Assembly: GCA_035544895.1 (NCBI GenBank)
Contig: DASZZM010000009.1
Coordinates: forward strand, 3,797 to 67,796
Reading direction: 5' to 3'
Length of the DNA: 64,000 nucleotides
Source of the DNA: Thermoanaerobaculia bacterium
GTDB taxonomy: Bacteria; Acidobacteriota; Thermoanaerobaculia; Multivoradales; UBA5704
In this document: positions 42,018 to 44,053 of the stretch, in pieces
Layout: each line of letters opens with the position of its first letter
Position numbering within the stretch: position 1 is the first letter of the stretch
Made by a program: the position numbers and the translations under genes
Notes under the pieces: model-generated
Database searches by the model: none
Told to the model about the DNA's origin: nothing
The model's input: the letters and a program-made list of their open reading frames with translations, nothing else

Positions 42018-42033
42018 GCAATGCCGCCGCCAG
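42018..42033 (-). promoter_or_regulatory. Candidate sigma54 (-24/-12) promoter TGGCGGCGGCATTGCT upstream of the TIR-NACHT gene
   Basis: The reverse complement of gcaatgccgccgcca gives TGGC-N8-TTGC with consensus GG/GC spacing. It sits about 55 nt upstream of the 41951 start, in the spacer after the sigma54 activator gene. This is a pattern match only. Confidence 0.3.
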
Positions 42034-42115
42034 CAGGGCCGCGGCCCCACGCACGTGGTTCCAGGCCACAGCCAAGAGCCGAGAGAAGTCTCAGCGTCCC
42101 CATCGCGCTCCTACA

Positions 42116-44053
42116 CTAGAGCAGACCCCTCAAGTCCAGATTCCGGATCAACCGGTGCAGGTAGTTGGGATGCAGGCCGAGGGCCTTGGCCGCCTCGGTG
42201 ATGTTGCCACTCGCTTCCTCGACGGCGGCGAGAATCAGGCGCTTCTTCTGCTCGTTCAGGGCGTCGTGGTAGCGCGAGGGGGCGGGACCCGCGGCGGCGG
42301 GCTTCTCGTGCACGGTCTCCGGCAGGTCCTCGGGCCAGATCACCTCGTCTTCGCCCAGCGCCAGCGCCCGCTCGACGGCGTTGGCGAGCTCGCGCACGTT
42401 GCCCGGCCAGTCGTGGCGCAGCAGGCAGGCGCGGGCCGCCGGGCTGAACCCGGCAAACGGGCGCGCCATCTTGCGGCTGAGCAGGGCGGCGAAATGGTTG
42501 GCGAGCAGCGGGATGTCCTCGCGGCGCTCGCGCAGCGGCGGCAGGCGCAGAGAGATGACGTTGAGGCGATAGAAGAGGTCCGCCCGGAAGCCGCCGGAGC
42601 CGAGCGCCTGCTCGAGGTCGCGGTGAGTGGCGGCGAGCACGCGGACGTCGACCTTGATGGGGCGCGTGCCGCCGATGCGCTCGATCTCGCGCTGCTCGAG
42701 GGCGCGCAGGAGCTTGGCCTGGAGCGGCGCCGGCAGCTCGCCGATCTCGTCGAGGAAGAGCGTGCCCGTGTCGGCCACTTCGAACTTGCCGATCTTGCGC
42801 GCCACGGCGCCGGTGAAGGAGCCTTTCTCGTGGCCGAAGAGCTCGCTCTCGAGCAGCGTCTCCGACAGGGTCGCGCAGTTGATCGCCACGAAGGGCCGCG
42901 CGGCCCGCGCGCTGCGCTCGTGCAGGGTGCGCGCCACCACCTCCTTGCCGGTCCCGCTCTCGCCGCGGATCAGCACGGTCGAGTCCGCCGGTCCGAGGCG
43001 CGCCACCAGGCGCTGCACCTCGCGCATCGCCGGGCTCTCGCCGATCATGTCGCGCCGCAGCTCCTCGGTGAGCCGGCGGTTCTCGGCTTCGAGCTCCTCC
43101 TGCCGGCGGACCGCGGCCAGCGCCGGGGCGGCGATGCCGGCGACCGCCGAGAGCAGCCGCAGGTGGCCGGGGTCGAACCATCCGGGGCCGATGCTGTCGA
43201 GGTAGAGCAGGCCGATGGGCCCGTCGCGGCCGCCCAGGGGGACGGCGAGCAGCGAGCGGATGCGCGCCGCCTGCACGCTCTCGGACGCCGCCAGGTCGCC
43301 GCTGCTCGGCGCGTCGTTGGTGACCAGCGCGACACCCTCGCGGAGGACACGGTCCGCCACGGTGCGGCTCACCGGGAAGGGATCGGCCGCGCCGCTGTGG
43401 CGGTCGAGCGCGTAGGCGGTCGCGAGCTCGCCCGCGCTACGGCCGGCGCGGTCGAGCAGGAGCAGGGCGGCCCGGTCGGCGGGGACCGCCTGGAGCACCA
43501 GCCCGAGCAGGCGGCGCGCCAGCGGCTCGCTGGCGTGGATCTCGGCGAGGGCCGAGCCGATCTCGAGCAGCGTCTTGAGGTCGCGGGCCGCCCGCGAATC
43601 CGCCGGCAGCGCCGCCAGCATCTCCTGGCGCTGCCGCTCGACCGCCTCGGCGACGGGCAGGTGCACGGTGCTGTCGGAGAGCTGGCCGGTCTCCTCGAGG
43701 CGCACCGCGTTCATCGCGTTGATCGCCCGAGGCAGCTCGGCGCCCGCGGCGAGCAGCATGAACTGCGAGCCGCCCACCCCCAGCAGGTCTCCGGCGGCGA
43801 GCTCGCGCTCTTCGACCGGCAGGCCGTTGACGAAGGTCCCGCTGCGGCTCTCGAGGTCGCGCACCACCAGCCGCCCATCCACCAGCTCGATCCGGCAGTG
43901 CTGGCGGGAGGCCGTCATGTCGCGGACTTGCAGGTCGTTGGCCGCGTGCCGGCCGATGCTCAGGCCCGCTTCCGGCAGGGCAAAGCTCCGTCCCGCCAGG
44001 GGGCCGCTGAGCGCCACCAGCCGTAAGCCCGCGGTCGTCGTCGAGTCGTGCAT
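42116..44053 (-). CDS. Sigma54-dependent transcriptional activator (bacterial enhancer-binding protein) with N-terminal FHA and GAF domains
   Basis: FHA domain ([47 protein letters not shown]). GAF region. AAA+ sigma54-interaction domain ([18 protein letters not shown]...[15 protein letters not shown]). C-terminal Fis-type HTH ([24 protein letters not shown]). Confidence 0.85.

Follow-up and report, generated by a model that had tools for sequence, protein, structure and literature searches.

An FHA-GAF sigma54 activator of the Thermoanaerobaculia and its predicted operator-promoter pairs before two secreted-protein genes

Enhancer-binding proteins (EBPs) of Myxococcus xanthus that carry an FHA domain were reportedly proposed by Jelsbak, Givskov and Kaiser in 2005 (PNAS 102:3010) as a bridge from Hanks-type Ser/Thr kinases to sigma54 transcription. 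To our knowledge, few FHA-domain sigma54 activators have defined DNA sites and targets, and a literature search returned nothing specific on activators of the FHA-GAF type. One such activator is encoded in the 64-kb stretch of DNA analysed here (the window), which has a G+C content of ~70% and comes from an uncultured metagenome-assembled genome of the class Thermoanaerobaculia. Like the M. xanthus proteins, which are the closest kind, it combines an N-terminal FHA sensory module with a sigma54 AAA+ domain and a C-terminal helix-turn-helix (HTH), but it comes from the Acidobacteriota and has an extra GAF domain between FHA and AAA+. Two secreted-protein genes, G and H, are each preceded by a candidate operator and a sigma54-type promoter. 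With a probability of roughly 0.7, the activator binds the operators of its family and drives these two promoters, and the NLR-like gene immediately downstream of the activator, which an earlier note on this DNA had placed under its control, is no sigma54 target.

The activator and its predicted targets

The earlier note described an FHA domain, a GAF domain and a sigma54 AAA+ module at 42018-44053, and Pfam confirms all three in an open reading frame (ORF) of 645 residues at 42116-44053 on the minus strand. The FHA domain (residues 32-94, nt ~43772-43960; PF00498, E 3e-16) is followed by the GAF domain (residues 178-312, nt ~43118-43522), the sigma54-interaction AAA+ domain Sigma54_activat (residues 336-502, nt ~42548-43048) and a Fis-type HTH (HTH_8, residues 604-634, nt ~42152-42244); AAA_lid_14 is also present. 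The match to PF00158 spans positions 1-167 of 168 (E 1e-69). Walker A reads GESGTGKE and Walker B LFLDEI. The sigma54-contact loop is GSFTGA; among the 120 closest homologues, 119 read GAFTGA here. This variant recurs in L085, L009, L010 and L074, the last of which has both an operator and a 15-bit sigma54 site, and judging from these sequences it is probably tolerated.

A 100% identical protein at NCBI is annotated as 'sigma 54-interacting transcriptional regulator [Thermoanaerobaculia bacterium]'. At E <1e-30 the activator has over 8000 database matches, and its architecture is common to the top 120, which are 56-70% identical to it. A scan of genome contigs gave mostly generic AAA+ matches and only ~12 full-length FHA-GAF relatives. 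By sequence, then, the activator is an intact member of a large Acidobacteriota FHA-GAF-AAA+-HTH family, and this type of regulator is already known.

Sigma54 sites were scored with a position weight matrix (PWM) built from 53 curated promoters (25 from E. coli and 28 from Desulfomicrobium) in S2 of PMC12316311, where the consensus is compiled as TGGCAC-N5-TTGCW. The training promoters score 4.5 bits at the minimum, 14.2 at the 10th percentile and 18.2 at the median. The two best sites in the window are copies of TGGCACCGGACCTGCT, at 48291-48306 and 51074-51089 on the plus strand, each with 15.1 bits and thus inside the training range. They are located ~94 nt upstream of the ATGs of gene G (48401-50794, plus strand) and gene H (51184-53055, plus strand), and a GGAGGA ribosome-binding site precedes each ATG. 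Gene G encodes a secreted protein of 797 residues with the signal peptide MRAKTRNTCLLAVALLLAVNQAALAG and He_PIG/PKD Ig-like repeats. Gene H encodes a paralogous secreted He_PIG/PKD protein of 623 residues, again with a signal peptide (Pfam).

A predicted activator site is positioned upstream of each of these promoters. At gene G the site CGGATAGGGACGCTCTATCTCAACAGATAG (48166-48195) begins with a half-site and ends with the palindrome CTATCTCAACAGATAG (48180-48195). At gene H the site CGGATAGGAGCAGTCTATCCGAACAGATAG (50946-50975) contains the palindrome CTATCCGAACAGATAG at 50960-50975 and has two mismatches to the family consensus. Both have the form CGGATAGG-N5-TCTATC(C/T)(G/C)AACAGATAG, and the distance from palindrome to promoter is 95 nt for gene G and 98 nt for gene H. 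These are the only GATAG/CTATC arrays in the 64 kb; 0.01 matches would be expected by chance in an 18-mer search. The gene G site is identical in L085, a JGI metagenome contig with the same gene order, an activator 98.6% identical at the protein level and flanking DNA 93-96% identical. When the upstream regions of G and H are aligned (two paralogues in each of two genomes, the window and L085), the operator and the promoter are invariant and their surroundings have diverged.

The order of elements is target gene, sigma54 promoter, operator and then, after 66 nt, the start of a unit composed of kinase F, a small ORF and the activator. Kinase F (Pkinase plus PD40 propeller; 44806-48099, minus strand) heads this unit and is divergent from gene G, an order that is kept in L085. 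Judged by sequence, this is the family's usual divergent arrangement with a kinase module inserted into it. Gene G also has a perfect 22-bp GC palindrome, GCTGGCCGCCGCGGCGGCCAGC (48200-48221), which separates its operator from its promoter. Part of this palindrome recurs before gene H (50982-50998) and in L085, and it may be the site of a second regulator or a DNA-bending element.

The same operator accompanies activators of this family in other genomes. In L003 and L004, whose activators are ~62% identical to that of the window, and in L006 (52%), the activator stop is followed by a pair of CTAnCCGATCGGATAG-type palindromes spaced 22-23 bp apart. Sigma54 promoters of 18-21 bits come next after these palindromes, 66-98 nt past the stop. 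L013 and L074 have the palindrome before the activator gene, at a distance of ~50-70 bp, and a sigma54-like site in divergent orientation ~85-100 bp away. Palindromes occur within 70 bp of the ends of EBP genes in 6 of 14 independent loci, where 12 palindromes were found versus 3.7 expected.

The relationship was also examined in reverse, by scanning metagenome contigs for the exact 16-mer CTATCCGATCGGATAG. This returned 80 loci, selected on that alone, and in 35 of them a full-length FHA-GAF-AAA+-HTH homologue (44-50% identical) lies no more than 400 bp from CTATCCGATCGGATAG, the palindrome usually being ~100 bp upstream of the EBP start. Counting sigma54 sites that score 12 bits or more and lie no further than 260 nt from the palindrome, 27 of 84 palindromes have one pointing away and 1 of 84 has one pointing toward it, at distances of 50-190 nt that cluster at 104-142. 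The window's HTH has the same 12-residue recognition helix as the palindrome-associated EBPs. Because the segment GN(I/Y) plus a further 23 residues is essentially identical between them, a shared DNA specificity is the simplest reading.

The ORFs downstream of operator-linked sigma54 sites are often signal-peptided, including ones of ~140 residues with an IPFDFxVG motif and others of ~280 residues, with which the secreted products of G and H agree. No description of the operator, CTATCCG-N2-CGGATAG, was found in the literature. The operator and its predicted targets are a routine regulon inference but, as far as we have found, an undescribed one, and they would give an abundant acidobacterial family a concrete set of operator, promoter geometry and secreted-protein targets.

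Two observations on individual loci may be added. The first downstream ORFs of L107, L116 and L142 encode ~140-residue secreted proteins with the motif (A/D)(N/D)IPFDFxVG...L(P/T)AGxY, apparently an uncharacterised family. In L001 a sigma54-like site of 13.6 bits, TGGCACAGGCGCTGCT (2549-2564, minus strand), is located 15 nt past the stop of a 70%-identical activator (P0002) and points into the activator gene, with a GATAG-N5-CTATC palindrome at 2700-2714, 136 nt away. This site could be an antisense promoter, belong to a small gene that was not called, or stem from a rearrangement.

Proposed mechanism and sensory input

DNA binding, sigma54 dependence, the kinase input and the mode of transcription of the NLR-like gene are inferred here rather than observed. 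In the mechanism that we propose, the Fis-type HTH would bind the 16-bp palindromes CTATCCG-N2-CGGATAG. The bound activator would then hexamerise, and its AAA+ ring would use ATP to open sigma54-RNA polymerase complexes at -24/-12 promoters lying roughly 50-190 bp away (mostly 100-145 bp), which in the window are those of G and H. The FHA and GAF domains would hold the activator inactive until it receives a signal, for which kinase F or one of its paralogues, acting by phosphorylation, is the likeliest source. Through the operator beside the kinase F start, the activator may in addition regulate its own transcription unit. Expression of the NLR-like gene would come from a housekeeping-type promoter containing TATCAT or from read-through. 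One rpoN gene is present in each of the 10 Acidobacteriota of PMC12316311 (10/10), a set that contains no Thermoanaerobaculia.

The closest solved structures to the FHA domain are those of the actinobacterial proteins GarA and OdhI (PDB 6i2q, 2kfu and 2kb3; E ~1e-13, best 2e-13). G34-R35 and S49-R-Q-H52 of the activator align with the GR and SRRH of GarA (6i2q), so that of the phosphopeptide-binding residues on which the earlier note had made its circuit depend, Arg35 and Ser49/His52, of the motifs that bind the phosphate, are kept, but the Asn of the S/T-x-N-G loop, which anchors the peptide backbone, is replaced by Ser71. Asn is found in none of the 114 scorable close Thermoanaerobaculia homologues (among P0001-P0120), which have His (63), Arg (35), Gln (13), Ser (2) or Ala (1) in its place. 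In the more distant, palindrome-associated soil homologues it is kept in 33 of 35, and Arg, Ser and His in all 35. The substitution suggests, at the level of sequence, an altered mode of ligand binding in the Thermoanaerobaculia subclade. Since Arg, Ser and His are kept and Asn is replaced, reading of phospho-Thr by this FHA domain is plausible, not assured. The N-terminal STTT of the activator (residues 4-7) was considered as the basis of a GarA-like intramolecular switch, and the idea was rejected: the motif is not conserved in relatives and is too near the FHA core.

Among loci found from the activator side, 9 of 15 have a Hanks-type kinase within 4 kb of the activator. The Thermoanaerobaculia relatives L002-L004 share a conserved synteny of a kinase-TPR gene, a divergent gene for a ~260-residue protein and the activator. 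The kinase link of the family is enriched, not universal. A circuit running from a kinase through the FHA activator to sigma54, as drawn in the earlier note, is reasonable given that the activator is complete and FHA-bearing and its relatives are often found beside Hanks-type kinases; it is the output to the NLR-like and kinase genes that is unsupported.

Several points weigh against regulation of G and H by the local activator. Sites of 15 bits are not very rare (0.5 per shuffled window), and the two palindromes of the window show 2 and 4 departures from the 16-position consensus. The PWM describes Proteobacteria promoters, and the host is an acidobacterium. The 27 away-pointing sites out of 84 were chosen with the same PWM, which makes their sequence likeness partly circular, although not their bias in orientation and distance. 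At the sensory end, Ser71 (nt ~43841-43843) replaces the canonical Asn, giving SRSGT versus SLNGT in GarA, and a kinase is nearby in only 2 of 13 loci of 8 kb or more that were found from the palindrome. Lastly, paralogous EBPs with the same recognition helix are probably encoded elsewhere in the genome, and one of them could be the true activator.

If so, the promoters of G and H would be genuine sigma54 promoters driven by a paralogous FHA-GAF-EBP, and the local activator would have other targets. The recognition helix is nearly invariant throughout the family, so paralogues could share sites. Furthermore, the main Thermoanaerobaculia group (~60% identical, L002-L004) has a different neighbourhood, and the window protein may therefore itself be a paralogue. 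We consider this explanation quite unlikely, however, because a secreted target, promoter, operator and EBP unit in succession is the typical local layout of the family, the layout at G and H is conserved in L085, and no other EBP was found among the tested proteins of the 64-kb window.

The spacer before the TIR-NACHT-FGE gene

The gene next downstream of the activator (38682-41951, minus strand) encodes a TIR_2-NACHT-FGE-sulfatase protein of 1089 residues, the NLR-like protein. Pfam and the same-strand gene order agree with the earlier note that the activator is directly upstream of this gene and among Ser/Thr kinases. The start of the NLR-like gene was set at ATG 41951, because its homologues have 1075-1095 residues and cover just 97% of a query begun at the in-frame GTG 42050. 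That GTG, which would make the motif discussed below coding, was dropped as a start for disagreeing with these lengths and coverage.

In the model of the earlier note, phospho-Thr from the adjoining kinases recruits the activator to a -24/-12 promoter in this spacer, switching on the TIR-NACHT-FGE and kinase C genes. The proposed 16-mer, TGGCGGCGGCATTGCT, does exist on the minus strand, at 42017-42032, one base off the 42018-42033 assigned to it. It is non-coding and has GG-N10-GC spacing with TGGC and TTGCT, ~55 nt upstream of ATG 41951 and on the same strand. It also follows directly after the EBP gene, where L003, L004 and L006 have their genuine promoters. Its PWM score, however, is 3.77 bits, which is below all 53 training promoters and ranks 120th in the window; 120 sites in the window score at least as high versus 113 in shuffled windows, which places the motif at chance level. 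The score is low because G-G follows TGGC, where A and then C or T are strongly preferred. TGGC-N7-TTGC occurs 4 times in the window versus 2.1 expected, and at least 4 times in 19 of 100 shuffles. Matches to the 16-nt consensus TGGCACGNNNNTTGCW with up to 3 mismatches are fewer than chance (56 observed, 86 expected).

No operator of the CTATC-N6-GATAG type is found near TGGCGGCGGCATTGCT or within 6 kb on that side, in contrast to the two palindromes between stop and promoter in L003, L004 and L006. The only inverted repeat found in 41900-42400 is weak and lies inside the gene. The predicted operator-promoter pairs of G and H are 4-7 kb away.

The comparison with L085 is direct. The nucleotide alignment of the two loci ends exactly at the activator stop and restarts 20 nt before the ATG of the NLR-like gene. 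The 144 nt of the window in between (41972-42115, with TGGCGGCGGCATTGCT) correspond to 51 unrelated nt in L085, in spite of the 93-96% identical flanks. No GG-N10-GC/TTGC motif occurs in the 71-bp spacer of L085, where the PWM gives -4.4 at best. What the two spacers share is limited to CTGCCCTATCATTC...ATG. A search of the window and the loci for relatives of the 144-nt segment gave no significant match; there is only a 13-nt identity with the start of kinase C. This 13-mer, TAGGAGCGCGATG, comprises a ribosome-binding site and ATG and is found on the minus strand at 42101-42113, after the activator stop, and at 38644-38656, at the kinase C start. The copy at 42103 opens only a 57-codon ORF in another frame and is probably due to chance or a small duplication.

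Four further loci with TIR-NACHT-FGE homologues (L086, L087, L208 and L209; 64-77% identity) have neither an activator or kinase neighbour nor a sigma54-like site, and no such site was found upstream of the NLR homologue in any of the five loci examined. An activator adjoining an NLR-like gene was found only in the window and its near-identical sister locus L085. Sequence thus argues that TGGCGGCGGCATTGCT is a chance match and not a functional sigma54 promoter, and sigma54 wiring to the NLR-like gene is not supported; the model of the earlier note, tempting as its wiring diagram is, appears highly improbable and is corrected here. There is a slight chance that the site at 42017 is a newly gained weak promoter. 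More generally, in a genome of 70% G+C, matches to GG-N10-GC/TTGC are no more than chance would give where neither conservation nor an activator site backs them.

Transcripts of the NLR-like gene probably originate at a housekeeping-type promoter near the ATG, or else extend into it from the activator gene by read-through. A -10-like hexamer, TATCAT (41960-41965, minus strand), is located 8 nt before the ATG, in the stretch conserved in L085, and could serve as part of such a promoter. Three of the four further NLR homologue loci have a -10-like TAnnnT (TAGACT, TATGAT or TACAAT) 12-24 nt before the ATG; L086, the called product of which is without the TIR region, has none.

In a wider arrangement, kinase F, the small ORF, the activator, the TIR-NACHT-FGE gene and kinase C would form one long leftward unit, on which the activator would act only indirectly: by occupying the operator that ends 66 nt before the start codon of kinase F, it would autoregulate a housekeeping-type promoter. 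The genes are co-directional, and no terminator-like hairpin was seen after the activator gene. When folded, the RNA of the activator-NLR spacer is mildly structured (z = -2.2) and has no U-tract, and for this reason it is not taken as an intrinsic terminator. The gap between the activator and the NLR-like gene is just 71 bp in L085, kinase C either abuts the NLR-like gene or is separated from it by 35 bp, and the palindrome ~100 bp upstream of the EBP gene in most family loci suggests autoregulation. On the other hand, sigma70-like promoters are present within the array, before the small genes, and the conserved TATCAT stands just before the NLR-like ATG. A single long unit therefore seems unlikely to us, but it deserves some weight.

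The earlier note's second and weaker candidate, TGGCATATCCAAGGCAA, upstream of small protein A, had been placed at ~28348-28364. The sequence exists at 28368-28384 on the minus strand, but it scores only 6.0 bits, and the stretch that holds it is missing from L085. A sigma70-type promoter, TTGCTA-N18-TATAGT (28424-28395), precedes it, and the candidate occupies the positions ~11-27 nt past the -10 box. Of the seven small-gene upstream regions that were compared, most have a sigma70-like box after the stop of the kinase gene.

Neighbouring genes and known systems

The run of minus-strand genes was picked out by third-codon-position G+C. Read leftward, it comprises kinase F, a small Cys-rich ORF, the activator, TIR-NACHT-FGE, kinase C (Pkinase plus PD40; 35605-38646) and two more modules of a kinase and a small ORF, to 27881. 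The kinases of these modules, at 32245-35262 and 28489-31698, are likewise Pkinase plus PD40 proteins encoded on the minus strand (Pfam).

A small ORF of 93-123 residues follows 3' of each PD40 kinase gene (27881-28252, 31811-32125, 35175-35477 and 44330-44611, all minus strand). The products share the N-terminus M(A/I)FKYK(E/D)L and the C-terminus LxxLQEQ(V/L)RQxxAxG around a variable core rich in Cys, Thr and Pro, and a strong ribosome-binding site, CCCCAGGAGGTGA, precedes each ORF. Most have a sigma70-like TTGnnn-N16-18-TAtAaT box directly after the kinase stop, and L085 is alike in this. They have no signal peptide and are possibly kinase substrates, ligands or precursor peptides.

Two of the TIR-NACHT-FGE homologues are found in settings that resemble defence islands. 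In L086 (16900-22961) the neighbours are HEPN/DUF499, HepT-MNT and DUF1156 methylase genes, and in L087 (13690-16032) a TIR-Pkinase-FGE fusion adjoins the homologue. This context fits an immune-type role of the NLR-like protein that is independent of the activator. PMC7159879 describes FGE-type ('FGS') domains that serve NTPase conflict systems as sensors or effectors, which concerns the activator's neighbour and not the activator itself. Elsewhere in the window, the region 8278-13996 has a lower G+C content (62-68%) and no ORF that passes the third-codon-position G+C test. It contains the third-best sigma54 PWM site of the window, TGGTTCGCTTCTTGCT (8596-8611, plus strand; 12.8 bits).

A more speculative possibility, which we hold to be very doubtful, is that the whole 25-kb array of four receptor-type PD40 kinases (each followed by the gene of a Cys-rich small protein, which has its own sigma70-type promoter), the NLR-like protein and the activator forms one circuit, in which kinase activity or NLR status would be read by the Asn-less FHA domain and lead to sigma54-dependent secretion of Ig-repeat surface proteins. 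Such a circuit, if true, would be a bacterial link from receptor-kinase and NLR-type sensing to a dedicated transcriptional output.

Each of the known systems shares some features with the activator. GarA, to which its FHA domain is closest, is a stand-alone metabolic regulator and, unlike the activator, no transcription factor. NifA and FhlA have, like the activator, a GAF domain directly N-terminal to the sigma54 AAA+ domain and a Fis-type HTH; the activator differs from them in its additional FHA domain, in having no nif or hyc genes nearby and in its candidate targets, which are secreted Ig-repeat proteins. The JGI label 'Nif-specific regulatory protein', carried by many homologues, was discarded, as it has no support from gene context. 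The control regions of G and H resemble the canonical architecture of a sigma54 promoter with upstream activator sites, as at glnAp2 with NtrC, in having TGGCAC-N5-CTGCT and paired palindromic sites ~95-98 nt upstream. They differ from it in their operator, CTATCCG-N2-CGGATAG, which is family-specific, and in the conserved GC-rich palindrome between operator and promoter. The M. xanthus FHA-EBPs remain the nearest parallel; unlike them, the subclade of the window activator has the FHA Asn replaced, and its operator and candidate targets are legible from the DNA alone.

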